A stretch of DNA of 64,000 nucleotides from Verrucomicrobiota bacterium (GTDB lineage: Bacteria > Verrucomicrobiota > Verrucomicrobiia > Limisphaerales > CANJXF01): NCBI GenBank assembly GCA_038214755.1, contig JBBQRQ010000011.1, forward strand, positions 1 to 64,000, written 5' to 3'. The position numbers and the translations under genes were made by a program. The notes beneath the pieces were generated by a model, which was not told where the DNA came from, did not search any database, and worked only from the letters and a program-made list of their open reading frames with translations. Of this stretch, positions 133 through 62,537 are shown one piece after another. How positions within the stretch are numbered: the stretch's first letter is position 1; each line of letters begins with the position of its first letter.

Positions 133-2688
133 ATGTCCCGCCCACACCACGACGCTTACGAATTGACCAACGCCGAAAAGCGCGACCTCACAAAACTCAT
201 CAACGAAGGAAAGCCGCTGCCGGAAAAATACCGCTTCATCCTGTTCGCCGACAAACGCGAGGTCGAACTCGTCTGGAACGGCAAGTCCCGCGAAGTCTGC
301 ACCACCATTCTGCCGTTCCAAACGCTGGAACACGTTGACGAGCCACGCAAGGAAAAGCGCGATGACGAGCAACTTGGCTTTGACCTCCGCGGACGCCAGC
401 TCAAAGGCTGGACAAACAAACTCATCTGGGGCGACAACAAACTCATTCTCTCCTCCCTCAAGGCCGGCGCGCTCCGCCGCCAGATCGAGGACGCCGGCGG
501 CATCAAGCTCATCTACATTGACCCGCCCTTCGACGTCGGCGCGGACTTCAGCATGGACATCGAGATCGGCGGCGAGACTTTCCACAAAGAGCCGAACCTC
601 CTCGAACAAATCGCCTACCGCGACACCGGGGGGCGCGGCGCGGATTCCTTCATCGCCATGATTTACGAACGCCTCATCCTCATGCGCGACTTGATGCACA
701 GCGAGGGCAGCATCTATGTGCATTGCGATTGGCGGGTAACAGGATTCATCCGCATGGCACTGGATGAAGTCTTTGGGCGAAATGCTTTCATCAATGAAGT
801 AATTTGGAAACGTCAGTCCGCGAAAAGCGGTTCGTTCGACGGCATGGGACAATTCGGGCGAATCCACGAAACAGTTTATTTCTACAGCAAGACAGACCGC
901 TTCACTTGGAATCAACAATTCGCTCCTTACCACGAAAGCTACATCCAAGATTTCTACAAATACGTCGAGCCAGAAACAGGAAGACGATACCGCTTGAGCG
1001 ACTTGACTGGCGCAGGACCACGCCAAGGAGATTCGGGCGGACCTTTGAAAATTGGCGAGGCGGTTGTGCGGCCTGCTGCTGGGCGGCATTGGGCGTTGGG
1101 TTTGTTGCCGAACGAGACTGTGCAACTGGCAATGGATCGTCTCGTTGCCGAAAAGAGGATTCAATTCCGCGAAGGCGGTATGCCGCAATACAAACGCTAT
1201 CTCGACGAGATGCCGGGCGTTTCTTTGCAGGACATGTGGACGGACGTTCTTTCAGTTGCGCCGCAAAGCGAAGAGCGACTTGCTTACCCAACCCAAAAGC
1301 CCGAAGCCCTGATGGATCGGATTATCAAAGCCAGCAGCAACGAAGGCGAATTGGTGGCGGACTTTTTCTGCGGCAGCGGCACGACGGCGGCCGTGGCCGA
1401 AAAGCTGGGCCGCAAATGGATCGTCACCGACCTCGGCAAGTTCGGCATCCACACCACGCGCAAACGGCTCATCCAGGTGCAGCGCGAGCGCAAAGCCGCC
1501 GGCCAGCCCTTCCGCGCCTTCGAGGTCTTGAACCTGGGCCGTTACGAACGCCAGGCCTACCTGAACATCGGCGGCCGTTTGAGCGCCAAGAAAAAAGCCG
1601 ACGCCCTCGCGCGCAAGGAACAGGAATTCCGCGAGCTGATCCTGAAAGCCTATCGCGCCGAGCCGCTCGGCGGCGGCAGTTTTGCGGGGAGCGCGGGCGT
1701 CCCGCCTGCCGTTTCCGGCGTCGCGCCGGAAACCCCAACCTACGGCGCAGCCGCAAAACAAAAAAATCAGGCGCTGCGCGCGAAAGACGAAGCAACGGGC
1801 GCGACGCCCATTGCCGCACGCGAGACGCGCGCGCTCCCCAGTGACGAATTCTTCCACGGCAAATCCGGCGGGCGGCTCGTCGTGGTCGGCCCGATCAATC
1901 TGCCCGTTGGCCGGTTGTTCATCGAGGAAGTCATTACCGAATGCCGCAAGCGCGGCGCGACGCGCGTTGATGTGTTGGCCTTTGAGTTTGAGATGGGACT
2001 GTTCCCCGCCGTGCTGGACGAGGCGAAACAAAAGGGTATTGATCTCGCGCCCAAAACCATTCCGCCGGAAGTGTTCGACAAGCGCGCCGTGGAAAAAGGC
2101 CAGGTGCGTTTCCACGACGTGGCCTACATCGAGGTGACGCCCAGATTTTGGAAATCCGAAATCCGAAATCCGAAATCCGAAATGACCTTGGCCGTGGAAC
2201 TGATGGATTTCTCGGTCTATTACTCGCAAGGCGTCGCGGATTCGATTGCCGCCGAATTGAAGGAAGGCAAAAGCGAAGTGACCTGCGAGCAAGGCAAGCT
2301 CATCAAGTTGAGCAAAGACAAGAACGGCGTCATCACGCGCGACGTGCTGACGAAGCAATGGACCGACTGGGTGGATTACTGGGCGGTGGATTTTGATTAC
2401 GAGAGCCGGAAGGAAATAATCAACAAGACGCGGAACATCGCGACCGGCGAGGAAATCCGTGACTGGAATCCCAAAGACCCGACACTCGTCGAGCATTACA
2501 CCCACTGGGAAGGCGCATACGTTTTTGAAAACGAATGGCAGAGTTTCCGAACCCGCAAAGACCGGGATATTGAATTGAAGAGCGCCACGCACACTTACGA
2601 AAAGCCCGGTCGTTACATCATCGCCGTGAAAGTCATTGATATTTTCGGCAACGACACGATGACCCTCGTGCCGGTGAATGTGGGTTAG
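133..2688 (+). CDS. mod: Type III restriction-modification methyltransferase (Mod), beta-class N6-adenine MTase
   Basis: 851-aa ORF with NKLIWGDN, catalytic IYIDPPF, YPTQKPE and SAM-binding DFFCGSGTT; long C-terminal extension ending VKVIDIFGNDT as seen in type III Mod proteins. Confidence 0.9.
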   Translation: MSRPHHDAYELTNAEKRDLTKLINEGKPLPEKYRFILFADKREVELVWNGKSREVCTTILPFQTLEHVDEPRKEKRDDEQLGFDLRGRQLKGWTNKLIWGDNKLILSSLKAGALRRQIEDAGGIKLIYIDPPFDVGADFSMDIEIGGETFHKEPNLLEQIAYRDTGGRGADSFIAMIYERLILMRDLMHSEGSIYVHCDWRVTGFIRMALDEVFGRNAFINEVIWKRQSAKSGSFDGMGQFGRIHETVYFYSKTDRFTWNQQFAPYHESYIQDFYKYVEPETGRRYRLSDLTGAGPRQGDSGGPLKIGEAVVRPAAGRHWALGLLPNETVQLAMDRLVAEKRIQFREGGMPQYKRYLDEMPGVSLQDMWTDVLSVAPQSEERLAYPTQKPEALMDRIIKASSNEGELVADFFCGSGTTAAVAEKLGRKWIVTDLGKFGIHTTRKRLIQVQRERKAAGQPFRAFEVLNLGRYERQAYLNIGGRLSAKKKADALARKEQEFRELILKAYRAEPLGGGSFAGSAGVPPAVSGVAPETPTYGAAAKQKNQALRAKDEATGATPIAARETRALPSDEFFHGKSGGRLVVVGPINLPVGRLFIEEVITECRKRGATRVDVLAFEFEMGLFPAVLDEAKQKGIDLAPKTIPPEVFDKRAVEKGQVRFHDVAYIEVTPRFWKSEIRNPKSEMTLAVELMDFSVYYSQGVADSIAAELKEGKSEVTCEQGKLIKLSKDKNGVITRDVLTKQWTDWVDYWAVDFDYESRKEIINKTRNIATGEEIRDWNPKDPTLVEHYTHWEGAYVFENEWQSFRTRKDRDIELKSATHTYEKPGRYIIAVKVIDIFGNDTMTLVPVNVG
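1686..1839. repeat. REP/REPIN-like palindromic element in frame inside mod
   Basis: GGGGAGCGCGGGCGTC...GACGCGCGCGCTCCCC inverted ends with GGAG foot; translates as GSAGVPPAVSGVAPET...ARETRALP. Confidence 0.8.
2151..2183 (+). repeat. Heptamer tandem repeat (GAAATCC)x4+GAAAT inside mod
   Basis: Directly visible; encodes KSEIRNPKSE; same heptamer as the intergenic array elements. Confidence 0.9.
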
Positions 2689-2754
2689 GAATCTGTGGCT
2701 GAGGCAAACCTTGCCAATGACAGCAGGGAGAGTTTGACGGATTGACCGGCTTGC

Positions 2755-2778
2755 GTGCTACAGTCTAACTATGTCCCC
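2755..2778 (+). repeat. Copy 1 of a 24-bp direct repeat (extended -10 promoter plus ATG); copy 2 at 4482-4505
   Basis: GTGCTACAGTCTAACTATGTCCCC vs GTGCTATAATCTAACTATGTCCCC, 22/24 identical. Confidence 0.75.
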
Positions 2779-2789
2779 AATGTTGAACC

Positions 2790-2920
2790 TGAAATCCGAA
2801 GGCCGAAATCCCGCAGAGCGGGACGAATATCCGAAGCCCGAATGCTTGTTACCCAGCCACAACCTCGGCCCACTTTTTCCTGTCGGCGGCCAAAAGTTTC
2901 GGCTTTCAGATTTCGAGCTT
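2790..2920. repeat. Degenerate heptamer-array inverted-repeat element
   Basis: GAAATCCGAAGGCCGAAATCC...ATCCGAAGCCCGAA left arm; TTTCGGCTTTCAGATTTCGAG right arm. Confidence 0.6.
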
Positions 2921-2922
2921 CG

Positions 2923-3066
2923 TTGAAACAATGGTGCGCCGACGCCACCGCTGCCGAGGAGAACGGCCCGCATTACGATTTTGTTTTCGTGGACCAGAAC
3001 GGCTTTGAAAAACACTCGCCGAAAACTTTTGCCGCGCTCGCCGCGAGCTTCATTGAATACAAATAA
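2923..3066 (+). pseudogene. C-terminal remnant of a type III restriction (Res) subunit
   Basis: LKQWCADATAAEENGPHYDFVFVDQNGFEKHSPKTFAALAASFIEYK* resembles, from recall, the C-terminus of type III Res proteins; no helicase part is present upstream. Confidence 0.65.
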
Positions 3067-3101
3067 TCGCCAATTTTTCCTGATTGAAGTAAACTCCAGC
3101 T

Positions 3102-4322
3102 TTGAAAAATATGAAGCCGCCCAGCGATCAAGAACTAGAAGCGATCTTGAATGATTTGGAATCCGACCGGGCCGAGAGAAAGGAAGCGTGGTCTGGATCG
3201 GCTCCGGAAAAATGCCGGGAGGCCGTGTGCGCCTTCGCCAATGACCTGCCCAACCATCAGCAGCCGGGCATTGTTTTCATCGGAGCCGGTGACGACGGCC
3301 GCCCGTCGGGCGCGCCCGTCACCGATCAATTGCTGCTCACACTGGCAGACCTCAAGACCGACGGAAAGATCATCCCTTCACCCACCTTGACGGTCGAGCG
3401 GCGCACGCTTAAAGGCGGCGATATGGCGGTCGTCTGCGTCTGGCCGGCGGATGCGCCACCGGTGCGCTTCAGCGGGCGCATTTGGATCCGCATCGGCCCC
3501 CGTCGCGGTCTCGCTTCGGCGCAGGACGAGCGCATTCTCAATGAACGTCGGCGTCACCGGGACATTCCTTTTGACATTCAGCCGTGGCCTTCCGCCCGGC
3601 TGGCCGATCTTAGCCGCACCGCTTTTGAGGAGGAATATCTTCCCGGCGCCTTTGCTCCGGACGTGCTGGCGGCCAACGATCGCACCTATGAGCAGCGGCT
3701 GGCCGCCTGCCGCATGATCACCTCCGCCGATGACCCCACGCCTACCGTGCTGGGTCTGCTCACGCTGTCCCGCACGCCGCCGCGCTGGCTACCCGGCGCC
3801 TATGTCCAGTTCCTCCGCATCCAAGGCACGGCCTGGGCCGACCCGGTCGTGGACGAGGCCGTGCTTGATGGGCCGCTCGCCGCCATGATCCGGCGGCTGG
3901 ACGAGAAACTCTTATCCCACAACCGCGTGACCGTGGACTTCACTTCCACACCCATAGAAACCCGCCGCCACACCTATCCTCCGACCACCCTACAGCAACT
4001 CACCCGGAACGCGGTCATGCACCGCACCTACGAAGGCACCAACGCGCCAGCCCGCGTGTATTGGTTCGATGACCGCATCGAGATCATCAGCCCTGGCGGG
4101 CCTTACGGTAATGTCACTCCGGCTAACTTTGGCCAGCCCGGCTTCGCGGATTATCGCAATCCCCATCTGGCCGAGGCCATGCGCGTGCTCAACCTCGTAC
4201 AGCGTTTCGGCGTGGGCATCTCCATCGCCCAGGCCGCCCTGAAGGAGAACGGTAACCCGCCGATCTCCTTCCAGGTGGACTCCGCCATGGTTTTCGCCCG
4301 CGTCTATCCCGCCAAACTCTGA
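3102..4322 (+). CDS. AlbA_2 (Schlafen-like) DNA-binding domain plus HATPase_c_4-like ATP-binding protein (alternative start ATG 3111)
   Basis: ESDRAERKE, AVCAFAN, GIVFIG at the N-terminus; NAVMHRTY, FDDRIEIISPGG, YRNPHLAEAM, VQRFGVGI at the C-terminus. Confidence 0.8.
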   Translation: MKNMKPPSDQELEAILNDLESDRAERKEAWSGSAPEKCREAVCAFANDLPNHQQPGIVFIGAGDDGRPSGAPVTDQLLLTLADLKTDGKIIPSPTLTVERRTLKGGDMAVVCVWPADAPPVRFSGRIWIRIGPRRGLASAQDERILNERRRHRDIPFDIQPWPSARLADLSRTAFEEEYLPGAFAPDVLAANDRTYEQRLAACRMITSADDPTPTVLGLLTLSRTPPRWLPGAYVQFLRIQGTAWADPVVDEAVLDGPLAAMIRRLDEKLLSHNRVTVDFTSTPIETRRHTYPPTTLQQLTRNAVMHRTYEGTNAPARVYWFDDRIEIISPGGPYGNVTPANFGQPGFADYRNPHLAEAMRVLNLVQRFGVGISIAQAALKENGNPPISFQVDSAMVFARVYPAKL

Positions 4323-4324
4323 TC

Positions 4325-4471
4325 ATGCCCCGCCCACACCAGGACGCCTACGACCTCACCGACGCCGAAAAGCGCGACCTCATCAAACTCATCAATGAGG
4401 GAAAGCCGTTGCCGGAGAAATACCGCTTCCTACTTTTCAAAGACCAAGCTGAGGTCACCCACGGGCTGTGA
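4325..4471 (+). pseudogene. Truncated second copy of the mod 5' end (MPRPHQDAYDLTDAEKRDLIKLINEGKPLPEKYRFLLFKDQAEVTHGL*)
   Basis: First ~38 codons align with Mod MSRPHHDAYELTNAEKRDLTKLINEGKPLPEKYRFILF, then diverge to TGA at 4469-4471. Confidence 0.9.
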
Positions 4472-4482
4472 TCTCGACTATG

Positions 4483-4491
4483 TGCTATAAT
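4483..4491 (+). promoter_or_regulatory. Extended -10 sigma70 promoter (TGcTATAAT), probably leaderless
   Basis: Perfect TGnTATAAT 6 nt upstream of ATG 4498. Confidence 0.65.
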
Positions 4492-4497
4492 CTAACT

Positions 4498-7502: not shown

Positions 7503-7723
7503 AGAAACTGCCTTCAGCCTCACCCATTTTTAATCACACCCAGACGGCAGTTGGGTTGCAAGTTCATGTTGCATGTGATACGCCCCGGCCCTCGTGTTTC
7601 ATTATCCTTGCTCTTATCATGCGGTGATAGTGAGATAGTAAAGTGTTCTCCACCGCTCCAGTGACTAAGCCCGAATTCCGAAATTCCAATCCCCGAACTC
7701 CGAAAGAAGGCCGAACTCACGAA

Positions 7724-9574
7724 ATGCCAGCGGGCCGGAGCGCCGGGTTGCCACCGGCTTTGGAGATCGAACCAGGAAAAGCCGGTGGCAAACCGGCGCT
7801 CCGCGTTTGGCGCGTGCTGTTGCGGGCCGCCGCTTTTTACCTGGCCGCTTCGTGTCTGTCCGTCGGAGCCAAAGGCGCTGAGTTGCCCAAAGCTTCCGCA
7901 CCCGCAGTCGTGATTCACAGTGTCCTGGTGGACGGCCAGGATCAGAAGTTCTCCGCCGAGGCTCCAACTCAGACTGAAGTTCGGAGCGAAATTGTTTCAA
8001 GTCGCAGCGCGAAGTCTGAACGGCTTCAAATCTCTTCTGCTGCCCAACGGTTGGAATTCAAGTTCGGTCCCGCTACCACCTCGTCTAATCCGCCGGTGCG
8101 ATTTCGCTATCAACTCGAGGGAATTGACAAAGATTGGCGCGAGGCAGGCGGCGAGATGCGTCTGACTATAAAATTTCTCGACTCAGCCAACAACACGGCT
8201 GGCGCGGTGGATTTCGTGGCCCGAGGCGAAAGTCCAGGTTGGGCGGGCAATGTCGCCGATTCCAGGTTGGTCCATCGTCGGGAGCAGATCACTGTGCCGC
8301 CGCGCGCGGCCTCGATGCAAATCGAACTCTTCTCCGGTGGCGACGAGCAAACCACCGGCATCATGGCCATTGATGATCTCTCCGTTTCTTTCGCGGGTGG
8401 GACCAACGCGAAACCTGAAGTCCCCGTGTTCAGTTCTCGCCATACCGGAAATAAAGACCTCGACCCTTCATTGGGAGTTCCACGCAATTGGATGCGGGAT
8501 GGCTCCAAACCGACCATTGCCCAGATGCGGCAGTTAGATGACAGAGAACCGCGACACGTTTTGGCCGTCGTGGATACTGACTCTACAAGATGGGGTGCCT
8601 GGCGGACGGACCAGAATTCGTCTGTCCCAGTCAACCCAGGGGATTCGCTCGTCTTGCTCTGGAACGAAATGTACAGCATCGGCTGGGGTGGCGCGCGCGA
8701 GGTCAGCTATAGTTATCTGCCAGCCGGTGAATATCATTTCCGGGTCAGAGCCGTCACGGAAACTGGCGAGTGGACGAATGAAATGACCTCCTTGGCGATC
8801 ACGGTGTTGCCGCCCTTCTGGAAGACAAGTTGGTTTTTGGCTGGAACCCTGGCTCTCGCGGTCGTGGCGCTGGTTGCTGGCGTCCGTTACGCGACGTGGC
8901 GCAAGATGCAATCGCAAGTTGAAATACTGGAAGGGCGACATGCCATCGAACAAGAGCGGGCGCGCATCGCTCGCGACCTGCATGATGATCTCGGGGCGAG
9001 TCTGACGCAAATTGCGTTGCTCAGTGAATTGGCTAAAGCTGACCTCGCCCAGCCGGATTTGGCGAAGACTCATCTGAACCAGATTTTCACTACGGTGGGG
9101 GAGTTGGCGCGGCAGTTGAATGAAATCGTGTGGGCCGTCAATCCGGCGAACGACACGCTGGAACATTTCACCAGTCACATTTGCAAGTTCGCCCAGGATT
9201 ATCTGAGTGCGGCCGGGATTCGTTGTCGGCTGGATTTCCCGGAATCCGTGTCGTGTTATCCCATGCCCTCCCTCGAGCGGCACAACCTTTTCCTCGCGGC
9301 CAAAGAGGCCCTGCATAACATCGTCAAACATGCGGAAGCGGAACAGGTTTGGCTCCGCTTGAAACTCGAACCAGATGTGTTGTCGTTGTTAATTGAAGAT
9401 GACGGAAAAGGCTGGGACGCAGAAATAATTACGGGGCCATCTAACGGCGTGGCGGGGGATGGATTGTCCAACATGCGGAAGCGCATGGAGCAACTCGGTG
9501 GTCGCTTCGCGCAACAGAGCAAATCCGGTAGCGGGACGACCGTGCGGCTGGTCTTGCCGCTTAGGAAATCATGA
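7724..9574 (+). CDS. Membrane sensor histidine kinase (Y_Y_Y domain with inserted CBM-like domain, one TM helix, HisKA_3, HATPase); start uncertain (7661 GTG, 7724 ATG or 7814 GTG)
   Basis: FRYQLEGIDKDW...YSYLPAGEYHFRV; PPFWKTSWF TM; ERARIARDLHDDLG; EALHNIVKHA, IEDDGKG, GDGLSNM. Confidence 0.9.
   Translation: MPAGRSAGLPPALEIEPGKAGGKPALRVWRVLLRAAAFYLAASCLSVGAKGAELPKASAPAVVIHSVLVDGQDQKFSAEAPTQTEVRSEIVSSRSAKSERLQISSAAQRLEFKFGPATTSSNPPVRFRYQLEGIDKDWREAGGEMRLTIKFLDSANNTAGAVDFVARGESPGWAGNVADSRLVHRREQITVPPRAASMQIELFSGGDEQTTGIMAIDDLSVSFAGGTNAKPEVPVFSSRHTGNKDLDPSLGVPRNWMRDGSKPTIAQMRQLDDREPRHVLAVVDTDSTRWGAWRTDQNSSVPVNPGDSLVLLWNEMYSIGWGGAREVSYSYLPAGEYHFRVRAVTETGEWTNEMTSLAITVLPPFWKTSWFLAGTLALAVVALVAGVRYATWRKMQSQVEILEGRHAIEQERARIARDLHDDLGASLTQIALLSELAKADLAQPDLAKTHLNQIFTTVGELARQLNEIVWAVNPANDTLEHFTSHICKFAQDYLSAAGIRCRLDFPESVSCYPMPSLERHNLFLAAKEALHNIVKHAEAEQVWLRLKLEPDVLSLLIEDDGKGWDAEIITGPSNGVAGDGLSNMRKRMEQLGGRFAQQSKSGSGTTVRLVLPLRKS
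7736..7803. repeat. REP-like palindrome (GGAG foot) at the kinase 5' end
   Basis: CGGAGCGCCGGGTTGCCACCGGCTTT / AAAGCCGGTGGCAAACCGGCGCTCCG. Confidence 0.8.
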
Positions 9575-11638: not shown

Positions 11639-14125
11639 ATGAATGTCCGAGTCCCGCTGTTTTTTATAACGGCGCTGTTAATAGTGACCAGTCCAGCCCG
11701 CGCTGACTTGCTGCCCAACAATTTCTGGGTGAATCCAACTTTCGAGAGCGGCACCAACCTCAACCAAACAACGGGCACACCCTCAAACTGGACTCGTGAT
11801 GGCGGTGACACCACCATCTGTCAGGTGATCACCAACAACTCTGTCAGTTCAAGTCATTCGTTGGCAGTCATAGACACCACTGGTAGCTTCGGCGAGTGGC
11901 GCTCCGACGTCACTCTCAGCGGCAACGCCACCAACGGCGACGCGTTGAATATCCAGTGGTATGAAATGTATAACCTCAGCGCCCCCGAGATGCGCCTAAC
12001 CGTGCAGTTCTTTAACGCCACCACCAACGTCGTCGGAGAAACCCACTTTACCACCTCCGGCACGAGTAGCGCCGGATGGGTGAGCACCATCGCGAATTCG
12101 ACGTTTACGAAGCGGAATGCGGCGTTGGTGGTGCCGGCCGGCGCGGTGAGGATGCGCTGTGCCCTGGTCTCCGGCGGAGACCCAGCCATTACCGGTGTAA
12201 TGGTCATTGATGATTTATCGGTGGCCCGCGTTAACTTGTTGCCCGGCAATTTCTGGGTGAACTCGGCTTTCGAGAGCGGCACTAACCTCAACCAGACTAA
12301 CGGCACACCCGCAAATTGGACACGCGACGGCGGTGACACGAATATCTGTCAGGTGACCACCAATAACTCCGTGAGCTCGAGCCATTCGTTAGCCGTCATA
12401 GATAATAATGCTAACACTATTACCGGTTACGGCGAGTGGCGCTCCGATGTCAACCTCATCGGCAATGCCAGTCCCGGCGACACATTGGATATCCAGTGGT
12501 TTCAAATGTATAACATGAACTTTCCCAGTATGCGCCTAACCGTGCAGTTCTTTAACGCCAGCAGCAACGGCGTCGGAACAACCGACTTTACCACCGGCAC
12601 GAATACAAGTAGTGCCGGATGGGTGAGCACCATCGCGAATTCGACGTTTACGAAGCGGAATGGGGTGTTGTTGGTGCCGGTCGGCGCGGTGAGGATGCGC
12701 TGTTCCCTGGTCTCCGGCGGTTTCCCAGGCATCACCGGTGTAATGGTCATTGACGACTTATCCGTGGCGCGCGTGCCGGTACCAGGTAATTTCTGGGTGA
12801 ACTCGAGTTTCGAGCTCGGCACTGACCTCGACCAGACCAACGGCACACCCGCAAATTGGACTCGCGGCGGTGGTGACGTGACTATCGATCAGGTGACTAC
12901 CAGCAACTCTGTTAGCTTGAGTCATTCGTTAGCCGTCATAGATAACAATACAGACGTTGATCTCGGTTACGGCGAGTGGTACTCCGACGTCACTCTCATC
13001 GGCAACGCCACAAACGGCCAAGCGTTGAATATCCAGTGGTATGAAATGTATAACGTGAGCGTCGGTACCCAACATGAGATGCGCTTGACCGCGCAGTTCT
13101 TTAACGCCGCCAACGACCTCGTCGGAGAAACCCACTTTGTCACCGTCGGCACGAGTAGCGCCGGATGGGTGAGCACCATTGCGGATTCGACGTTCACGAA
13201 GCGGAATGGGACGTTGTTCGTGCCGGTTGGCGCGGTGAGGATGCGCTGTTCCCTGGTCTCCGGCGGCTCCGGAGCTCCCACCGGGGTAATGGTCATCGAC
13301 GACCTGACGGTAGCCCTCAATTCAGCAACGCCAGTAATACCTCCGACCGTCCTGGCAGGTAACTTTTTCCCGAACCCGACGTTTGAGGTGGGATCTCAGT
13401 TGGACGATCCCGCAGCCGCATCTGAGTCGGGTTGGACGCGCGGCGGCAATGATGCCACGATGGATCAGGTCACCACGAGTAACTCCGTCAGCCCCACGCA
13501 CTCGCTGTCCCTCGTGGATAATTCCTTGAGTTACGGCGAATGGTATCAGTACCTCACCCTGTCCGGCGTGGCGGCGGGCGACGTGCTCGACGTGCAATTC
13601 TTCCGAATCTACAGCACGACAAACGGTCCTATGCGTTTGACCTTCGGATTCCGCACTGCCGGGGGCGCTAGCTTTGGGCCGCAATACGATTTCCTCGGGG
13701 GTGACCCTTTCGGTGGCCAAAGCCCGGGCTGGCTGGGCAGCGTCGCCGCATCGCCCTTCGAGCGGGTTTCGGGCCGCTTCCTCGTGCCCGCGGGCACCGG
13801 GCAACTCTCGGTTAAATTCGCCTCCGGCGGTGCCGGGGATGTAATGGGGACGATGGTCATTGACGACCTGTCCGTGCGAATCAGCAGGCCGGTCATCACG
13901 GAGATTGCGTCCCAGGTCGGCGGCAAGAACCTCACGTGGTTAAGCATGCCCAGCAAGACCTATACGGTGCAGTTCGCCGCCACGCTCTTGAACACGAATA
14001 CGGTCTGGACGTCGCTCGCCACAAACCTGGTTTCGGGCGGTGGGACGAACGGTCTCTCGACGTCGTATTTGGACACGGCCACCCATGCTGGCAACACCGG
14101 CTTCTATCGTGTCATACAGGAGTAA
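11639..14125 (+). CDS. Secreted protein with four tandem ~175-190-aa CBM-like repeats and a C-terminal FYR domain
   Basis: ATG 11639 (MNVRVPLFFITALLIVTSPARA signal peptide); repeats start near 11717, 12245, 12785 and 13358, each from NFWVN/NFFPN to MVIDDL; ends GFYRVIQE. Confidence 0.85.
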   Translation: MNVRVPLFFITALLIVTSPARADLLPNNFWVNPTFESGTNLNQTTGTPSNWTRDGGDTTICQVITNNSVSSSHSLAVIDTTGSFGEWRSDVTLSGNATNGDALNIQWYEMYNLSAPEMRLTVQFFNATTNVVGETHFTTSGTSSAGWVSTIANSTFTKRNAALVVPAGAVRMRCALVSGGDPAITGVMVIDDLSVARVNLLPGNFWVNSAFESGTNLNQTNGTPANWTRDGGDTNICQVTTNNSVSSSHSLAVIDNNANTITGYGEWRSDVNLIGNASPGDTLDIQWFQMYNMNFPSMRLTVQFFNASSNGVGTTDFTTGTNTSSAGWVSTIANSTFTKRNGVLLVPVGAVRMRCSLVSGGFPGITGVMVIDDLSVARVPVPGNFWVNSSFELGTDLDQTNGTPANWTRGGGDVTIDQVTTSNSVSLSHSLAVIDNNTDVDLGYGEWYSDVTLIGNATNGQALNIQWYEMYNVSVGTQHEMRLTAQFFNAANDLVGETHFVTVGTSSAGWVSTIADSTFTKRNGTLFVPVGAVRMRCSLVSGGSGAPTGVMVIDDLTVALNSATPVIPPTVLAGNFFPNPTFEVGSQLDDPAAASESGWTRGGNDATMDQVTTSNSVSPTHSLSLVDNSLSYGEWYQYLTLSGVAAGDVLDVQFFRIYSTTNGPMRLTFGFRTAGGASFGPQYDFLGGDPFGGQSPGWLGSVAASPFERVSGRFLVPAGTGQLSVKFASGGAGDVMGTMVIDDLSVRISRPVITEIASQVGGKNLTWLSMPSKTYTVQFAATLLNTNTVWTSLATNLVSGGGTNGLSTSYLDTATHAGNTGFYRVIQE

Positions 14126-18032: not shown

Positions 18033-19985
18033 GTGAAACGAACTCTTACAGCATGTCTGAAAATTCCATCCGCCTGTAGCAGCCGAGGTAACGAGGCTCT
18101 TACTTTTTCGGCAAACCTCCGTCAAAGCGAGACCACGCCGGAAGTCAGAGCCTCGTTACCTCGGCTGCTACGATTTTTCAGACACGTTCTTAGTCTCCAA
18201 ATCCTCCTGGCGGTCGCTGTTCAAACGGCGCTCGCCATCCAAGCCCCGAATGGGTTGGTGAGCCGGACAGGCGATCTAAGCGTCGTATTGCACTGGGACA
18301 AGAATACCGAGACGAACCTCGCGGGCTATCGTGTTTATCGTTCGCTCAATAGCAGCGGCCCATACAGCCTGCGGACTACCAGTCTATTAACCGATCCAGG
18401 TTTTTGCGATCTGACGGTTAGTAATGGGCAGACAAACTATTACCAAATCACGGCCGTAACTTCTACTTCCCAGGAGAGTCTTCCTTCACTCACCCAGGCG
18501 GCGCTACCTCATCCCTTTGCTGACGATGATGAGTTCCTTGAGTACCTCCAACAAACCAGTTTTGATTACTTTTGGTACTTGGCTAATCCGAGCAATGGGT
18601 TGGTGCCGGACCGAAGCGCGGTCGGCTCGGCCTGTAGCATCGCCGCAGTAGGCTTTGGGTTGAGCGCCATCGCAATCGGTATCGACCATGGTTGGATCAC
18701 ACGTAACCAAGGAGTGGCGCGAGTCCTTACCACCCTCAATACTTTTCTCCAGAAGCCGCAGGGAACGAACGTCGCAGGCATGATTGGATATAAAGGTTGG
18801 TTCTACCATTTCCTGGATATGAACACCGCCTTGCGCGCCAACTCGGAACTCTCCTCCATCGATACAGCTTTGTTGCTGGCGGGGATACTTCATGCCAAAC
18901 AGTATTTCGATAGCACCAACTCCGATGAGACTGCCATTCGCACGACAGCGGACGCGATATTTAACCGCGTAGATTGGAATTGGATGGCGCAAGGAACCAA
19001 CGCCCTATCTATGGGCTGGTTCCCCACGTCAGGCTTTATCGCGGGCAATTGGATTGGCTATAACGAAGGGATGATTCTTTATTGCCTTGGCCTTGGCACT
19101 GCGACGAACCCGTTGCCTGCTTCAGCATGGAACCGTTGGACCAACAGCTATATCTGGTCCACCAATTATGGTCAGACCTATGTTCAGTTCGCTCCTTTGT
19201 TCGGGCACCAGTATTCCCATTGCTGGATTGATTTCCGCCATGTTGCGGACGCCTATATGAACAGCCATAGCAGCACTTACTTTGAGAACTCGCGTCGCGC
19301 AAGCCTAGCCCAACGGACTTACTCCATCGCCAATCCGGGACAAAAGGTGGGATATAGCAGCAACGTTTGGGGATTGACCGCGTGTGATGGTCCAACTGGA
19401 TACGCGGCGCGCGGCCTCCCACCCGCCGGACTCGATGACGGCACGATTGCGCCCACTGCCGCCGGCGGTTCGATAGCCTTCACTCCCGAATACTCGGTGC
19501 CGACATTACGCTACTTCTATAGGCAATACCGGCCGCGCATTTGGACTGCGTATGGGTTCCGCGACGCATTTAACCTCGGCGCTCAATGGTACGCCACCGA
19601 TGAGCTTGGAATCGACCAAGGCCCCATTGTCATCATGATCGAGAACTATCGCACCCAACGCGTTTGGCGGCTCTTCATGAAAAACCCGGAGGTCCAACGC
19701 GGGTTGGAGCGGGCGAATTTTGTCTCACTTCCTTTTATCGCGCCAAGGTTGCAGACACTGCCTTTTCAAACAGCATTTAACCTCGACTGGGACTCCACCA
19801 CCGGCCGTAGCTATCAAGTCGAATACTCGCCGGACCTTGGCACTTGGTTTGCCTCGCCGACGGGGGAAATCCTCGCCGCCGGTCCAACTGCCAGTTGGAC
19901 TGATAACGGTCCGCCTGCTACCGCAACCGTGCCTTACAGCGTCGCTCAACGATTCTACCGCGTGTTCCAATTCGGCGCGCCTTAA
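18033..19985 (+). CDS. GH144-like (DUF3131/glucoamylase-family) putative endo-beta-1,2-glucanase with Fn3 domain and C-terminal FYR domain
   Basis: GLVPDRS, SIAAVGFGL, GWFYHFLD, ELSSIDT, GYNEGM, LFGHQYSHCWIDFR, WGLTACD, DGTIAPTA, YGFRDAFN, GIDQGPIVIMIENYR; GTG start 4 nt after the upstream stop. Confidence 0.85.
   Translation: MKRTLTACLKIPSACSSRGNEALTFSANLRQSETTPEVRASLPRLLRFFRHVLSLQILLAVAVQTALAIQAPNGLVSRTGDLSVVLHWDKNTETNLAGYRVYRSLNSSGPYSLRTTSLLTDPGFCDLTVSNGQTNYYQITAVTSTSQESLPSLTQAALPHPFADDDEFLEYLQQTSFDYFWYLANPSNGLVPDRSAVGSACSIAAVGFGLSAIAIGIDHGWITRNQGVARVLTTLNTFLQKPQGTNVAGMIGYKGWFYHFLDMNTALRANSELSSIDTALLLAGILHAKQYFDSTNSDETAIRTTADAIFNRVDWNWMAQGTNALSMGWFPTSGFIAGNWIGYNEGMILYCLGLGTATNPLPASAWNRWTNSYIWSTNYGQTYVQFAPLFGHQYSHCWIDFRHVADAYMNSHSSTYFENSRRASLAQRTYSIANPGQKVGYSSNVWGLTACDGPTGYAARGLPPAGLDDGTIAPTAAGGSIAFTPEYSVPTLRYFYRQYRPRIWTAYGFRDAFNLGAQWYATDELGIDQGPIVIMIENYRTQRVWRLFMKNPEVQRGLERANFVSLPFIAPRLQTLPFQTAFNLDWDSTTGRSYQVEYSPDLGTWFASPTGEILAAGPTASWTDNGPPATATVPYSVAQRFYRVFQFGAP
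18046..18192. mobile_element. IS1031-like MITE (141 bp plus TTA target duplication) carrying a GTAG REPIN, in frame in the GH144-like signal peptide
   Basis: TTA|CAGCATGTCTGAAAAT...TTTTCAGACACGTTC|TTA; internal GTAGCAGCCGAGGTAACGAGGCTC / GAGCCTCGTTACCTCGGCTGCTAC. Confidence 0.8.
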
Positions 19986-54313: not shown

Positions 54314-54319
54314 CCTTTG

Positions 54320-54449: not shown

Positions 54450-55604
54450 TCATGCGTTTGCTAATTCGCGCTCCGTCTTCAGCCGCAACTGTCCGCAAGC
54501 CGCGTCGATGTCGTGGCCTTTCTCGCGGCGCAAAGTGGCGATGACTTTTTCGCGTTCAAGGGCGGCGAGAAATTTTTCCTGCGCTTCCTCGGTCGGGCGA
54601 ACCCACGGCAAATCTTCCACTTTATTGTAGGGAATTAAATTTACCTTCGCGTGCAGGCGATGGGCCAGTTGCGCGAGGGGTTTGATCTGAGTCAAGGCGT
54701 CGTTGATTCCCGCGATCAAAATATATTCCAGCGTGATCATCCGGCCTTTTTTTTGTTCGTAATATTCGCAAGCGGCGATGAGATCGCGCAGCGGATATTT
54801 TTTGTTGATCGGCATGATTTTGTTTCGCGTTTCGTCGGTCGCTCCGTGCAGTGAAATGGCGAGACGAAATTGAAGCGGCTCCTCGGCGAGTTTGCGGATT
54901 TGTGGGACAAGTCCGCTGGTTGAGATCGTGATTTTGCGCGCGCCGATTCCTCCGCCCCACGGCGCATTTAAAATTTTCAGCGCCTTGATTAAATTATCGT
55001 AATTGGCCAGCGGCTCGCCCATGCCCATGATGACGAGATTGTTGATCAAACGCGGAACGGGGAACGCGGAACGCGGAATCAACGCAGTCCTGGCCTCCGC
55101 GTTTTGGGGATTTCTTTCCGCGTTCCCTGTTCCGCGTTCCGCGTTTTGACTACGTTCAATCGCCAAAACTTGCTCGACGATTTCTTCGACGCGCAGATTC
55201 CGTTTCCAACCTTCCAAACCGCTGGCGCAAAATTTGCAGCCGTAGGCACAGCCGACTTGCGTGGAAACACAGAGCGTGTGGCGGTCACTCGCTTCTCCGT
55301 AAAGCGCGGGCGTGGCGGGAATCAAAACACTTTCGATGAGCGCGCCGTCGGTGAGTTTCCAAAGAAATTTTTGCGTGGTGTCGCGCGAGCCTTGTTTGCG
55401 GACCAACTCGAGCGTCTGCAGAGAAAATTCTTTAGCCAGAAGTTCGCGCAAAATTTTGGGAAGATTGGTCATCGCCTCCCAACTCGTGACGCGGCGTTTG
55501 TAAATCCAGTCAAGCACTTGCGGCAGGCGATAAGCCGGCTGCTCCCAGATTTTAAATTGGGTTTGCAGCTCTTCGAAAGAAAGCGATTTGATGTCGCGCG
55601 TCAC
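54450..55604 (-). CDS. rlmN: 23S rRNA (A2503)-C2 / tRNA radical-SAM methyltransferase RlmN
   Basis: CVSTQVGCAYGCKFC, MGMGEP, ISLHG, NLIPYN, DIDAACGQL. Confidence 0.95.
   Translation of the reverse strand: MTRDIKSLSFEELQTQFKIWEQPAYRLPQVLDWIYKRRVTSWEAMTNLPKILRELLAKEFSLQTLELVRKQGSRDTTQKFLWKLTDGALIESVLIPATPALYGEASDRHTLCVSTQVGCAYGCKFCASGLEGWKRNLRVEEIVEQVLAIERSQNAERGTGNAERNPQNAEARTALIPRSAFPVPRLINNLVIMGMGEPLANYDNLIKALKILNAPWGGGIGARKITISTSGLVPQIRKLAEEPLQFRLAISLHGATDETRNKIMPINKKYPLRDLIAACEYYEQKKGRMITLEYILIAGINDALTQIKPLAQLAHRLHAKVNLIPYNKVEDLPWVRPTEEAQEKFLAALEREKVIATLRREKGHDIDAACGQLRLKTERELANA
55051..55146. repeat. (GGAACGC)n heptamer-array inverted repeat in frame inside rlmN
   Basis: CGCGGAACGGGGAACGCGGAACGCGGAA / TTCCGCGTTCCCTGTTCCGCGTTCCGCG with TTTCTTT core; encodes NAERGTGNAERNPQNAEARTALIPRSAFPVPR. 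Confidence 0.85.
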
Positions 55605-55911: not shown

Positions 55912-55916
55912 TACTC

Positions 55917-56180: not shown

Positions 56181-56349
56181 GCGCCACGTGCTTCCTCTTT
56201 TCGGGGAGACGGCTAGGGTGAGGGCGAGCAATTTTCTCCAGTGAAATGGTAAGGTTACCAAAGTCTTTGGACTTCGCCAATTGCGCGATGGGAGAACAAT
56301 GATATTTTGTAGCTCGAATAAGTGAAGGACATCGGCGTCTATAAATACT

Positions 56350-56910: not shown

Positions 56911-56950
56911 TTTAAATGCTTCGGCGCGGCGCGAATCCCATTATTAAAAT

Positions 56951-57580: not shown

Positions 57581-57595
57581 GCGGTTTTCGTTCGC

Positions 57596-58762: not shown

Positions 58763-58764
58763 TT

Positions 58765-59364
58765 ATGAAAAATAAATTTGAAATCCTAAATCCGAATTCT
58801 CGAAATCCGAAAGAAATCCGAAATCCGAACGCCGAAAACAATCTCTGTCCGACGCCTAAAAAAGCGATTCTCGACCAGCACAGTCCAGCAGCACTTTCGA
58901 CCTTCGGGTTTCGGACTTCTTTCGGATTTCGGATTTCGGATTTCGGATTTCGCGAAAAATTCTTTCTCGTTTTTTTCTCTACTGTGATCGCGGCGGCTTT
59001 GGCAGGCTGCGCCAGCGGCGGCGCCTACGAGGCTCGCAACGCCACCAAATACGATTTGGAAAACCGCGATGTCTTCGTGCTCATGGACGCGGGCGCGCAA
59101 CGCTCCATCACCAGTTCGGGTATCCAGCAGCGCGTCACGCCCGATGGACGGCTCGAAGTCACCGCCAATATTCGCAATCGCGAGAGTCGCCGCGTTCAGG
59201 TGCAGGTCAATTGCGTCTTCAAAGATGAGCAGGGATTTTCCACCGGCGACGAAACGCCGTGGCAAAATTTAATCCTCACGGAAAATTCACAGGAGGCGGT
59301 GCATTTTATCTCCATGAACGACAAGGCCCGTCGCTACACCATTCGCGTTCGAGAAGCGCGTTGA
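58765..59364 (+). CDS. YcfL/DUF1425-like lipoprotein with a repeat element inside its signal peptide
   Basis: Lipobox LAGC near residue 82; DGRLEVTANIRN..VQVNCVFKDEQGF..ETPWQNLIL. Confidence 0.75.
   Translation: MKNKFEILNPNSRNPKEIRNPNAENNLCPTPKKAILDQHSPAALSTFGFRTSFGFRISDFGFREKFFLVFFSTVIAAALAGCASGGAYEARNATKYDLENRDVFVLMDAGAQRSITSSGIQQRVTPDGRLEVTANIRNRESRRVQVQVNCVFKDEQGFSTGDETPWQNLILTENSQEAVHFISMNDKARRYTIRVREAR
58780..58951. repeat. Heptamer-array inverted-repeat element in frame inside the ycfL-like gene
   Basis: Same arms, core and spacer as 34207 and 37000; encodes EILNPNSRNPKEIRNP...FGFRTSFGFRISDFGFR. Confidence 0.9.
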
Positions 59365-59400
59365 AGGTTCCCTGATCTTAATCACCTCTAAATTAATCTT

Positions 59401-60369
59401 ATGAAAAAAATTCTTCTGCTCACTCTGCTCGGCCTCGCGGGCTGCGCGTCGTCTCCTCAACCGGAAGTGCGGACATACGGTTACACTTCGGGCGTCGCTC
59501 CCAACGCGGCTCCTGCTCCCGCTTCGAGCGAAACGTTTGTCTATGATCAAAAACCTTTGCCCGGCCAGCCCGCGTTAGTCGCGCCCGACCAGGCCAAATC
59601 CATCATCGACAAATTTAAAGACGCTTACGCAAAACTCGATAGCCCGCGCATGTTGATCTACGTCAATCGCGAGTTGGTGGACGAAAAAACAGGAATGAAA
59701 TTGATCGCGCGGACGGAAAAAACCGAGAGCACCCGCCGTCGAGTGGACAGCACCATTGACGCGAATGGACGCACTTCAAATTCCGTCACGATCAACGCGG
59801 GCCGCGACGTGACGATCAACGGCTCTGACACCGATGCGCTCGGAAAAGGGAAAATTTCCAGCAAAACGGAACGCGTCTCCAACGAAAATCGTTATCGTCT
59901 CGAAGAAAAAAATCGCACGCTCGCTGACCGGCAAACGGTTCGCGATGTCGAACGTCTTTTTGGCCGACCGCTTCGGGCCGCGGGCGCATCGTTGACCGAT
60001 CAAACTATCGCAACCCAATTGATCGCGGACCGTCCTGTTCGCTCGTTCGTAGTGAACACGGAAGGAGAAGTTGCTCGCAAAGATCGCCAGGCGCTGGCCA
60101 AAATCGCGGACGTCGTGATCGAGGTGTTGATTTCATCGCGACAAATTACCGTGGGTGGAGTTTCCGCTGATCAGGCTTATTCGGTTCCTGACATTGAAGC
60201 GACGGCGACGCGTTTGAAAGATTCCAAAATCATCGGGCAAGCTTCCTCGCGGGATGTCCTTGGCAAAGATCGTTACGCCGGGAGCATCGCGCGAAATTTT
60301 GACGTGCAAGACATCGCCGAAGCCACCGCTCTCGCGCTGATGGAAGACATCACGACCAATGCAAAGTAA
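59401..60369 (+). CDS. Lipoprotein of unknown function
   Basis: MKKILLLTLLGLAGC lipobox; fourth lipoprotein of the operon. Confidence 0.75.
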   Translation: MKKILLLTLLGLAGCASSPQPEVRTYGYTSGVAPNAAPAPASSETFVYDQKPLPGQPALVAPDQAKSIIDKFKDAYAKLDSPRMLIYVNRELVDEKTGMKLIARTEKTESTRRRVDSTIDANGRTSNSVTINAGRDVTINGSDTDALGKGKISSKTERVSNENRYRLEEKNRTLADRQTVRDVERLFGRPLRAAGASLTDQTIATQLIADRPVRSFVVNTEGEVARKDRQALAKIADVVIEVLISSRQITVGGVSADQAYSVPDIEATATRLKDSKIIGQASSRDVLGKDRYAGSIARNFDVQDIAEATALALMEDITTNAK

Positions 60370-60385
60370 GCGACGGAAGTTTCTG

Positions 60386-60639
60386 CCGTAGCCGACGACG
60401 TGAGGATATCTCCACGATTTGCAATCGGGCGCCGTGACCATGAACCTAAATTTTGCGCGGGAGCGTCTTGGACTGCGCCAGCCCTCTGGCGCTTTTGGAA
60501 CGTCCCGGCAATCCCAAAGCGGCAGAGGGCTGCCGCAGTCCAAGACCGTGCGGTTGTTTCACGGTTTATGGATAGGCGGTCTGACTTTTCCTGATCGATA
60601 AGATTAAATCAGACCGCCTCCTCACGTCGTCGGCTACGG
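60386..60639. repeat. Three-layer nested palindromic element between convergent genes
   Basis: Outer GTAGCCGACGACGTGAGGA|GGCGGTCTGA arm split by a 60407-60574 insert, which itself contains a GGAC REPIN at 60465-60546. Confidence 0.8.
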
Positions 60640-60654
60640 GATCGCGCATCGCAA

Positions 60655-61407
60655 TTATTTCTCGCCGTAATTGATGCTCATTGCGCCGCCTAAAAAATTG
60701 ATCACGCGACTATTTTTGCAGTTCAACTTTTGCATTTTCTCCGCCACGCCGCGCTGCGCCGGATAATTTTTCAGCGACTCCAAAATGTAAGCGTAAGTGG
60801 CGCAGTCACCGCAAAAAACTTTTCCAAACAGCGGAACAATCCAGCGCAAGTATCCAAAATAGATTTTCCGCCAAAGCGCGTTGTCCGGTTTGCCGAAATC
60901 CAAAACCAAAATCCGCCCGCCCGGTTTGGCTACGCGAAACATTTCTTCCACTCCGCGCTCCCAACTCGGCAAATTGCGCAATCCGTAGCCGATACTCACA
61001 ACATCAAATTGTGAGTCTGCGAATGGTAAATGCTGCGCGTCGCCCTCGATAAATTGTAGCGGCGGTCTGTGACCGCCGGTGATTTTTTTTAAATGGCCGT
61101 GGCCACAGACGACCGCGACAACCCGTTGCTTCGCCACGTCTAACATTGGTCGGCTGAAATCCAACCCAGTAACTTCTGCGCCACATTTTGCCAGACCCAG
61201 AGAAATATCTCCCGTGCCACAACACACATCCAGAGCGTGCTCGCCTGGTTTCGCATTCGCCAAACCCACAAGCTGTCGTTTCCAATTCCGATGCAGCCCA
61301 AAACTTTGCAGGTCATTGATCAGATCGTAGCGCGGCGCAATTTTGGCGAACAAATCATGTACCTTCTCAGCGCGTTGTTCACCGGGCTGATAAAAAGGGT
61401 TGGCCAT
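60655..61407 (-). CDS. ubiE: UbiE/MenG quinone C-methyltransferase
   Basis: IAPRYDLINDLQSFGLHRNWK, LDVCCGTGD, GLDFS, GDAQHLPF, IGYGLRN, RVAKPGG, YAYILES. Confidence 0.9.
   Translation of the reverse strand: MANPFYQPGEQRAEKVHDLFAKIAPRYDLINDLQSFGLHRNWKRQLVGLANAKPGEHALDVCCGTGDISLGLAKCGAEVTGLDFSRPMLDVAKQRVVAVVCGHGHLKKITGGHRPPLQFIEGDAQHLPFADSQFDVVSIGYGLRNLPSWERGVEEMFRVAKPGGRILVLDFGKPDNALWRKIYFGYLRWIVPLFGKVFCGDCATYAYILESLKNYPAQRGVAEKMQKLNCKNSRVINFLGGAMSINYGEK
61054..61121. repeat. Degenerate GTAG REP-like palindrome in frame inside ubiE
   Basis: TTGTAGCGGCGGTCTGTGACCGC / GTGGCCACAGACGACCGCGACAA; encodes VVAVVCGHGHLKKITGGHRPPLQ. Confidence 0.7.
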
Positions 61408-61409
61408 TT

Positions 61410-62537
61410 TCAAATGCGATTAACCTTCTTCACCGAGCTTAAGATTTTTTCAACCGCATGCGCTTCATTGTCCTCGCTCAGCCAAATCCATTCCAATTGC
61501 ATCTGGTGTCGGAGCCACGTCATTTGCCGTTTGGCGAATTGTCGCGTGCGGATTTTCACAAGATCAATAGTCTCGGCTAACGGACGTTTGCCCTGCAAAT
61601 ATTCCACCACCTGACGATAGCCGATGGCTTGCATGGACGTTTGGTTTTTTTCCAAACCGCGTTCCATTAAATTCTTTGTCTCGTCCACCAAACCGCGCGC
61701 AAACATTTCATCGACCCGCCGGTTGATGCGCGAATGTAAATCGGACCTGCTCCGGGCCAGAGCAAACACCGTCGGCAATTTTTGAAGAGGAGTTTGCGCC
61801 CGTTGTTCAGAAAATGGTTTCCCCGTCAGACGAATGACTTCAACTGCGCGAAGGACGCGGCGGGGATTTTTTCGGTCGATCTTTTCAAAAGCTTCGGGAT
61901 CGCCCTCTTGCAACTCGCTCAACAAATCGGCGAGCGGAATTTTTTGGAGTTCAGCGCGCAAGGGGGAATTGCCGGGCGGCGCTTCACCCAGACCTTCGAG
62001 AAAAGCTTTCAAATAAAATCCGGTGCCGCCGCAAAAAATGGGGACGTGGTTTCTAGATTGAATTTCCACGACGGCTTTTTGCGCGAGCGAACAAAATTTT
62101 GCCGCGTCAAAACTTTCATCCAAATCCACCACGTCAATGAGGTGATGCGGAATTTTTCTCCGCTCGTCCGGCGAAGGTTTTGCCGTGCCGATGTCCAGGC
62201 CGCGATAGACTTGCATGGAATCGACGGAAATGATTTCACCGTTCAACTGTTCGGCCACTTGCAACGCCACCGCGCTTTTGCCGACGGCGGTGGAGCCAGT
62301 GAGGTAGATGGGAACAGTAGCCGCCGACGTGAGGAGAAGCGCCTCGGTCTGCAACCGGGCATCGCGGCCACGACGCCGGAACGCCGATCTCCTGATCGGC
62401 TCGGAGGAAATACTATCAGCACCGGGCCGATCAGGAGATCGGCGTTCCGGCGTCGTGGATAGGCAGACCTGCTCTGGGACACGAGTTTCCGCCTCCTCAC
62501 GTGGGCGGCTACGGGCGGGTTCATGGGGGAAGTTCAT
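61410..62537 (-). CDS. miaA: tRNA dimethylallyltransferase with a repeat-derived N-terminal extension
   Basis: GSTAVGKS, DSMQVY, IGTAKP, PHHLID, GGTGFY, AIGYRQ, TRQFAKRQMTW; ATG 62537 overlaps the lgt stop (ATGA). Confidence 0.92.
   Translation of the reverse strand: MNFPHEPARSRPREEAETRVPEQVCLSTTPERRSPDRPGADSISSEPIRRSAFRRRGRDARLQTEALLLTSAATVPIYLTGSTAVGKSAVALQVAEQLNGEIISVDSMQVYRGLDIGTAKPSPDERRKIPHHLIDVVDLDESFDAAKFCSLAQKAVVEIQSRNHVPIFCGGTGFYLKAFLEGLGEAPPGNSPLRAELQKIPLADLLSELQEGDPEAFEKIDRKNPRRVLRAVEVIRLTGKPFSEQRAQTPLQKLPTVFALARSRSDLHSRINRRVDEMFARGLVDETKNLMERGLEKNQTSMQAIGYRQVVEYLQGKRPLAETIDLVKIRTRQFAKRQMTWLRHQMQLEWIWLSEDNEAHAVEKILSSVKKVNRI
62317..62512. repeat. Nested REPINs in frame in the miaA 5' end
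   Basis: Outer GTAGCCGCCGACGTGAGGAG / CTCCTCACGTGGGCGGCTAC; inner perfect 33-bp stem 62368-62458. Confidence 0.85.

Follow-up and report, generated by a model that had tools for sequence, protein, structure and literature searches.

The window analysed here (64,000 nucleotides; positions 1 to 64,000 of contig JBBQRQ010000011.1, contig C11 of a 175-contig, 5.11-Mb genome that is 97% complete) comes from a bacterium of the order Limisphaerales, phylum Verrucomicrobiota. Six of its genes, coding for a type III-like Mod methyltransferase, a GH144-like protein, RlmN, a YcfL-like lipoprotein, UbiE and MiaA, carry seven inserts derived from short repeats that are dispersed through the genome, and a further repeat element lies at the 5' end of a sensor kinase gene (Table 1). 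All of these inserts lie in open frames. Eight of the ten stretches tested, covering seven of the eight gene sites, fold strongly in comparison with shuffled sequences (z -4.2 to -14.5), and each tested stretch has 16-305 further matching places in the genome. Among 87 coding controls from the same window, none had z < -3 and one had at least 10 other sites. The weakly folding stretches are the second mod insert (z -1.9) and the 7-base run at the kinase. The initial annotation of the window had described the inserts as palindromic, which holds for the strong hairpins but not for the second mod insert, a one-armed tandem array. The elements in the GH144-like gene and ubiE and the outer element in miaA carry GTAG tags, while the first mod insert, the kinase element and the inner miaA element end in GGAG or GGAA; the latter are similar in behaviour to repetitive extragenic palindromes (REPs) and lie outside the GTAG consensus. 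At the kinase, in-frame GTG (7814) and TTG (7820) codons are located downstream of the element and ahead of a normal-looking signal peptide, and the element may be untranslated and belong to the leader.

Table 1. Repeat-derived elements and selected host genes in the window.
Feature	Position	Strand	Description
mod insert 1	1686..1839	+	GGAG-ended REP-like dimer enclosing an inner stem; adds about 50 in-frame codons to the gene (133-2688) of a type III-like Mod methyltransferase; 16 other sites, z -4.3
mod insert 2	2150..2183	+	Family 3 (the commonest 7-base array), one arm only; net gain of about 6-7 codons; no palindrome
Sensor kinase 5' end	7665..7803	+	Decayed 7-base run (7665-7729) and GGAG-ended REP dimer (7736-7803)
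GH144-like (PF10091) insert	18054..18184	+	GTAG REP dimer (18076-18171), stem extended; lies within the signal-peptide n-region; likely start GTG 18033
rlmN insert	55048..55146	-	Hairpin of an inverted 7-base array (family 20), 33 codons; RlmN loop preceding the MGMGEP strand
YcfL-like lipoprotein insert	58780..58951	+	Complete inverted 7-base array element (family 3) behind codon 5; ATG 58765; 154 other sites, z -10.1
ubiE insert	61054..61121	-	GTAG REP dimer (family 9) in a UbiE/MenG loop
miaA insert	62317..62512	-	Nested: GTAG REP dimer (family 2) containing a second REP-like dimer (family 4, 62368-62458); 5' coding region; ATG 62537 overlaps the lgt stop
rlmN host gene	54450..55604	-	Single genome match; exceeds the TIGR00048 cut-off with the insert included
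miaA host gene	61410..62537	-	Single genome match; exceeds the TIGR00174 cut-off

Comparison with orthologues, which for the ycfL-like, GH144-like, mod and ubiE sites relied on coordinates, the DNA of genomes G001 (a congener) and G005, and protein homologues, revealed how each site looks elsewhere. At mod insert 1, about 50 amino acids are skipped by four relatives, whose matches jump from residue 517-520 to residue 568-570, and two relatives are 6-7 residues shorter around mod insert 2. The GH144-like insert of about 46 amino acids lies behind residue 5 of the signal peptide; homologues are mostly 604-609 amino acids long (among the 120 listed), most of the sequences examined begin with the same five residues as the likely GTG start, and no ATG, GTG or TTG is present between the hairpin and the signal core. 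In the ycfL-like gene, 172 nt are inserted behind the fifth codon, the congener has the same start-codon context without the element, and use of the next in-frame start would remove most of the signal peptide. The 196-nt element of miaA lies between the lgt stop and the P-loop, which are 236 nt apart here vs 34-55 nt in seven congeners; the first four residues of MiaA are shared by one congener, and the stretch from the element to the P-loop contains no in-frame start. The RlmN and UbiE inserts are interior loops, with segments of 31 amino acids in RlmN here vs 17 in the congener and of 22 vs 8 in UbiE. The initial annotation had claimed that inserts keep the frame in these six genes and had proposed orthologue alignments; the alignments bear the claim out for all seven inserts, with orthologues that lack them or have shorter segments, and not segments of equal length. 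Two further observations concern mod. In a Mod homologue of another genome (G011:C83:2090-3028), about 105 nt appear to separate the matches at the mod insert 2 site, perhaps reflecting another insert there, as judged by coordinates only. In the window itself, the first 139 nt of mod recur as an 83% copy at positions 4318-4483, after the gene at 3102-4322; this stretch matches Mod residues 1-56 with one internal stop. No res gene is evident in the window.

Clustering of frequent 13-mers across the genome yielded 44 groups with 1627 elements. Some are tagged stems of the REP type, most of them paired as dimers, and the others are tandem arrays with units of 7-8 bases. About 20 catalogued families have at least 15 copies. 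Period-7 arrays number 429, or 84 per Mb, vs 7.6 per Mb in the congener DNA read (2.78 of about 4.4 Mb). When an element was counted as inside a gene if it lay at least 30 codons within a gene called by a simple caller that trims gene starts, 158 of the 1436 well-supported elements were inside called genes, though genes cover 4.03 of 5.11 Mb, which amounts to an approximately 30-fold depletion per base. The other 1278 elements, over all catalogued families, lie outside gene interiors. An intrinsic element length divisible by three was considered and rejected, with intergenic dimers falling into all three length classes (34, 30 and 30 in family 0). The catalogue that the initial annotation had called for, with intragenic and intergenic counts and lengths modulo three, describes elements that are mostly intergenic and not of a 3n length. 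Shorter families enter genes more often (rho -0.58, p 0.007, 20 families), and the intragenic copies are more decayed, matching other copies over 32 nt vs 58.5 nt for intergenic copies. Single arms outnumber paired arms in genes (78 vs 19), and intragenic single arms lie on the purine-rich strand in 55 vs 23 cases (p 0.0004, codon bias not being controlled for). A classifier of intragenic copies by open-reading-frame score was abandoned: on cases covered by orthologues it was right in 33, false in 29, missed 37 and correctly left 17 unflagged, with 14 cases lacking anchors, and its count of 136 is not used.

Genome-wide, we compared 1038 orthologue pairs of at least 60% identity between this genome and the congener, counting segments at least 7 amino acids longer on one side and calling them repeat-like when they had at least six matching places in their own genome, themselves included. 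Segments longer here numbered 165, of which 103, in 89 genes, were repeat-like, while none of the 42 segments longer in the congener was repeat-like in the congener DNA read. Length-neutral variable control segments were repeat-like in 20 of 300 cases. The repeat-like inserts give a median net gain of 23 amino acids (range 7-80), and insert segments contain fewer hydrophobic residues (20.6% vs 32.6%). When the aligned span is divided into fifths, 19, 27, 27, 27 and 3 of the repeat-like inserts start in them, the method being blind to terminal inserts; the 3 of 103 in the last fifth may be real or an effect of the method. Scaling by aligned length gives an estimate of about 320 inserts for the whole proteome and, taken with the 158 catalogued intragenic elements, a range of 160-320.

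The reading frame proved to be a strict filter. Laying 1289 congener proteins on the genome identified 69 in-frame insertions that overlap catalogued repeats and no repeat-bearing frameshift or stop; the same mapping gave, without a catalogued repeat, 155 in-frame insertions, 3 frameshifts and 5 stops, and the pipeline detected 62 of 69 simulated frameshifts. Intergenic dimers span all three length classes and only 46.5% of their 6972 frames are stop-free, so that a random insertion would be expected to be disruptive in about 85% of cases. With 69 repeat-bearing insertions in frame vs 0 that break it, elements that are not 3n long and fewer than half of their frames free of stops, disruptive insertions must therefore have been removed or never fixed. 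Two proposals of the initial annotation, that several repeat families sit in frame in genes at high density and that selection keeps only tolerated in-frame insertions, agree with the catalogue and orthologue comparisons and with the frame counts and gene depletion, respectively.

Analysis of the host genes indicated that they are as conserved as other genes, with an identity to the congener of 0.79 vs 0.80 (77 vs 585 genes, p 0.56), and that they are longer (481 vs 320 aligned amino acids). Named from their congener orthologues, they include valS, alaS, pheT, glnS, argS, gatB, fmt, two uvrA, recQ, recG, recJ and mutY, and also dnaE, dnaE2, nrdJ, carB, purM, hemL, ispG, acnA, miaB and rlmN; 46 of the 89 have no NCBIfam match at the strict threshold used. 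One strong locus was found for 17 of 20 hosts checked, with valS and argS lying in two consecutive pieces and dnaE present as two differing copies. The two dnaE pieces (on contigs C163 and C71) overlap by about 200 codons at 80-87% DNA identity and both have repeat inserts; they may be paralogues or reflect a second strain in the bin.

The RlmN loop provides the widest view of a single site. An in-frame loop is present in 189 of 190 RlmN loci, 183 of them distinct, from relatives mostly labelled Verrucomicrobiota subdivision 3, Limisphaerales or Pedosphaera; these loci are best matches, so that broken copies would be under-sampled, and the relatives are not independent, so that the figures are descriptive. 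A 7- or 8-base run occurs in 59 of the 183 loops vs 4 same-gene controls, with 35 different units. Pairing of the 5' half of a loop is stronger with the 3' half of the same loop than with halves from other genomes (median -29.0 vs -22.0 kcal/mol), and own-arm pairing ranks in the top tenth in 66 of 143 loops vs 15 of 143 controls. When both arms were called, their units were reverse complementary within one mismatch in 12 of 28 loops vs 44 of 756 cross pairs. Loops are 9-47 amino acids long, and 30 of 105 have z < -2. Where a loop and its nearest neighbour both contain arrays, their units are at least two changes apart in 16 of 24 cases and one change apart in 1 of 24; six of nine pairs with at least 95% core identity also have units at least two changes apart. 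No array was called in the nearest neighbours of 35 of the 59 array-bearing loops. Six loops (L009, L013, L224, L237, L256 and L265) contain a variant with 6-base inverted arrays, which encode serine runs followed by Thr/Arg runs. The alignment-based prediction of the RlmN structure, which replaced a single-sequence model (predicted local distance difference test [pLDDT] of 35.6), has a mean pLDDT of 81.7, with values below 50 only at residues 160-180, and a solved RlmN structure has almost no residues at the insert position. The model suggests that the core fold is intact and that the loop at 160-180 is disordered.

Other sites are reused as well. In-frame arrays are located in the MiaA N-terminus of two other genomes (G013 and G020), the UbiE loop is also occupied by repeats in G004 and G005, and a different REP lies in the GH144-like signal peptide of P0010. 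The simplest reading is that an existing insert serves as a tolerant target that later insertions replace or extend, the nested miaA element being an example. A scan of metagenomes found no near-identical strain, with the best match at 82% identity. What is newer here is that the 7-base repeat hairpins of one enzyme loop differ even between very close relatives; in a literature search, which left subscription papers outside, no paper was found on array units serially replacing one another in one protein loop.

Small cassette genes are associated with both kinds of repeat. Seven of 12 matches to the REP-associated tyrosine transposase (RAYT) family NF047646 exceed its cut-off. Catalogued repeats lie within 500 nt of 10 of the 17 Y1 transposase matches, on both sides in seven; the families on both sides are 0, 6, 7, 10/13/18/21, 15 and 19, and family 2 lies on one side of one match. 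This survey of the flanks of the 17 matches found no cognate Y1 gene for families 4 and 9. Eight of the ten four-helix-bundle (PF05635) matches over the cut-off lie between inverted arrays of 7-9 bases, each with its own unit, and a flank-pairing score of at least 13 was reached by 8 of 10 PF05635 genes vs 3 of 150 small control genes. PF05635 open reading frames can also be held by 23S rRNA intervening sequences. Among the intragenic array units, that of family 1 has a cognate four-helix-bundle cassette (C157), while families 3, 20 and 22 have no cognate cassette among the assembled PF05635 matches. A single DUF559 gene is flanked by hairpins similar to family 5, and three GxxExxY genes are flanked by 8-10-base arrays; the DUF559 and GxxExxY (PDDEXK_3) genes are located at C14:2934-3251, C22:39206-39556, C14:48679-49029 and C4:68740-69081, each with its own hairpin or array type on both sides. 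The genome has 17 Y1 and 11 PF05635 matches vs 0 and 2 in the congener, two genomes allowing no statistical test. At three places (C88:17593-20601, C64:10325-11047 and C33:15701-16571), Y1/RAYT matches and their flanking REPs lie inside long open frames of 1003, 970 and 1440 amino acids, two of the matches adding 243 and 287 amino acids relative to the congener. Apart from repeats and cassettes, the gene at window positions 11684-14125 has four to five internal repeats of about 180 codons and is related to an upstream PEP-CTERM-like gene; these are ordinary domain repeats.

Taken together, these sequence data make it likely that short hairpin repeats of many families, spread genome-wide, are kept in proteins by selection as tolerated selfish repeats translated as loops. 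The explanation builds on direct observations, namely the inserts, which orthologues lack or have in shorter form, the exclusively in-frame placement, the gene depletion, the cassette genes flanked by cognate repeats and the intact predicted fold of RlmN. The repeats of the many families would be spread by their own small cassette genes, with RAYT enzymes copying the REP dimers and a process linked to the four-helix-bundle cassettes probably making the 7-base arrays; for cassettes other than RAYT, we know of no chemistry for moving repeats. Repeats would land throughout the genome, and selection at the protein level would retain frame-keeping, stop-free copies in loops, linkers or the fronts of signal peptides, where translation is predicted to turn them into additional, neutral peptide. 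Use of an existing insert as a tolerant target would explain both nesting and the repeated use of sites. The polar character of the inserts, the preference for short families, the decay of intragenic copies, the bias to the purine-rich strand and the RlmN model are all consistent with a frame filter and translation. Several results weigh against this explanation. The intragenic share of a family is uncorrelated with its number of stop-free frames (rho 0.16, p 0.51). It reaches 64-65% in two 7-base families (16 of 25 and 11 of 17) and 3% in the commonest one (3 of 113); because these shares differ so widely and stop-free frames are unpredictive, a frame filter alone is insufficient. The matched arms of RlmN loops across the order could mean that the hairpin itself is selected, and the three 7-base units commonest in genes were not seen on the flanks of any four-helix-bundle gene. 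Moreover, the genome-wide counts use one partly read, repeat-poor congener, with gain here and loss there not separated by an outgroup for most sites.

Some of these points would also fit hairpins that are retained for an action on the mRNA (pausing, RNase III cleavage or stability) and tune host expression, with the peptide as a by-product. The strong stems, the preferred pairing of RlmN-loop halves with their own partners and the position of three window inserts directly behind start codons argue for such a role, but it appears distinctly improbable given that few RlmN loops of such varied length fold strongly, that intragenic copies are more decayed than intergenic ones and that single arms exceed paired arms in genes. 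We consider it very improbable that the RNA is freed of the elements by splicing or excision, or that ribosomes bypass them, leaving proteins of normal length. Elements do sit in essential genes, and their stems resemble 23S rRNA intervening sequences, with genes of the ORF family found in the latter, PF05635, having such arrays on their flanks here; however, an excised element need not keep the frame, and the in-frame-only pattern is predicted by insert translation, not by RNA excision. None of the 69 repeat-bearing interior sites breaks the frame, the intragenic copies are the more decayed ones and the encoded peptides are biased to polar residues, so that excision or bypass, which the initial annotation had left as an alternative, finds little room. 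To our knowledge, no catalytic RNA core fits in 30-200 nt. In the contigs of one DNA run, which may be the source of this genome, pieces match the window without differences and break at repeats; the listed joints have sides shorter than 30 letters, typical of other repeat copies, and no excised form is claimed.

Decay of the host genes, or assembly artefacts in a metagenome bin, would be the least credible source of the inserts. Repeats do break the assembly, being found at 92 of 350 contig ends, and the two overlapping dnaE pieces, at 87% DNA identity, point to some contamination or paralogy; yet hosts are as conserved as other genes and mostly have a single locus, random mis-assembly would not give 69 vs 0 frames, and unrelated genomes and metagenomes have other repeats at the same RlmN, MiaA, UbiE and GH144-like sites. 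A rather unlikely alternative that concerns the arrays only is that only the REP dimers move, the 7-base arrays of loops being immobile products of polymerase slippage and template switching at the site itself. Many loop arrays are indeed short single arms, and slippage of heptamers has been proposed in the literature, as summarised in the available part of PMC4679880. Against this origin, neighbouring array-bearing loops seldom differ by a single unit change, including pairs with nearly identical cores, and the same few units occur in hundreds of dispersed copies and bracket most four-helix-bundle genes. A bolder version of the selfish-repeat explanation can be put forward tentatively: the 7-base inverted arrays might be non-autonomous offspring of a little-described four-helix-bundle mobile cassette, repeatedly overwriting the same loops, with both arms changed simultaneously to a new unit on each occasion; together with REP-RAYT and other small cassettes (DUF559 and GxxExxY), they might be the source of most new protein sequence in Limisphaerales that are rich in repeats (62% of the lineage-specific insertions here). 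A search of the literature found no paper on a link between 7-base arrays and four-helix-bundle genes.

The present genome provides numbers for a long-standing idea derived from Rickettsia, namely that selfish repeats are a source of new protein sequence: 103 of 165 lineage-specific insertions are repeat-like, with a frame filter of 69 vs 0. The RlmN loop is a single, easily sampled site, and hundreds of genomes could be compared there to test how 7-base repeats originate in bacteria. The inserts are also a warning for annotation: starts are easily called behind a hairpin, and hairpin-derived segments distort alignments and lengths.

The initial annotation had supposed that such inserts were undescribed in Verrucomicrobiota, which the literature contradicts: in the available text of Di Nocera et al. 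2013 (PMC3733652), Opitutus terrae is the richest case, with 70 entries for intragenic REPs, and neutral placement in linkers and loops is proposed. As with GTAG-tagged REPs in general, the elements here include stem-loops with a terminal GTAG-type tag in high copy, mostly intergenic and often as inverted dimers. The resemblance to O. terrae, as far as that text describes it, extends to the phylum, to tagged palindromes that are mostly dimers adding 20-30 amino acids, to several families per genome, to double inserts and to host types (two uvrA, an HrpA/B helicase, dnaE2 and an N-6 DNA methylase). Differences from it are the larger number of families and the participation of 7-base arrays; in the same text we found no orthologue-based count and no test of in-frame vs broken insertions, and the word "heptamer" occurs 0 times in its main text. 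Rickettsia palindromic elements, described as families of about 150 nt that encode a conserved peptide in a reduced genome (Ogata 2000, 2002, as presented in parts of PMC10969869 and PMC3733652), also lie in frame in unrelated conserved genes, where they are read as peptide. Unlike these elements with their CGTC-type ends, those here are shorter, belong to many unrelated families with unrelated peptides, are read in several frames and have cognate RAYT genes, a comparison of described properties and not of the sequences themselves. REP-RAYT systems (REPtrons and REPINs) share the short GTAG-ended stems in dimers, the hundreds of intergenic copies and the RAYT genes with cognate repeat flanks, but some families here are GGAG- or GGAA-ended, about 11% of copies lie in genes and three Y1 transposase matches lie in long host open reading frames. 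In indirect contrast to self-splicing or excised elements (IStrons and rRNA intervening sequences), which need not keep the frame, none of the 69 repeat-bearing sites mapped here breaks it. Long simple-sequence repeats of heptamers, some of them intragenic, are reported from Xanthomonas and Nostoc (PMC4692102) and from Beggiatoaceae (PMC4679880); in the available portions of these papers they likewise consist of 7-base tandem units, often in inverted pairs, and 7-11% overlap open reading frames in Xanthomonas. The arrays here differ in that many units coexist, in that they bracket four-helix-bundle genes outside rRNA and in that one protein loop holds 35 units across relatives. The kind of phenomenon is therefore already in print, and its less described part is the 7-base inverted arrays that bracket four-helix-bundle genes and fill the RlmN loop.

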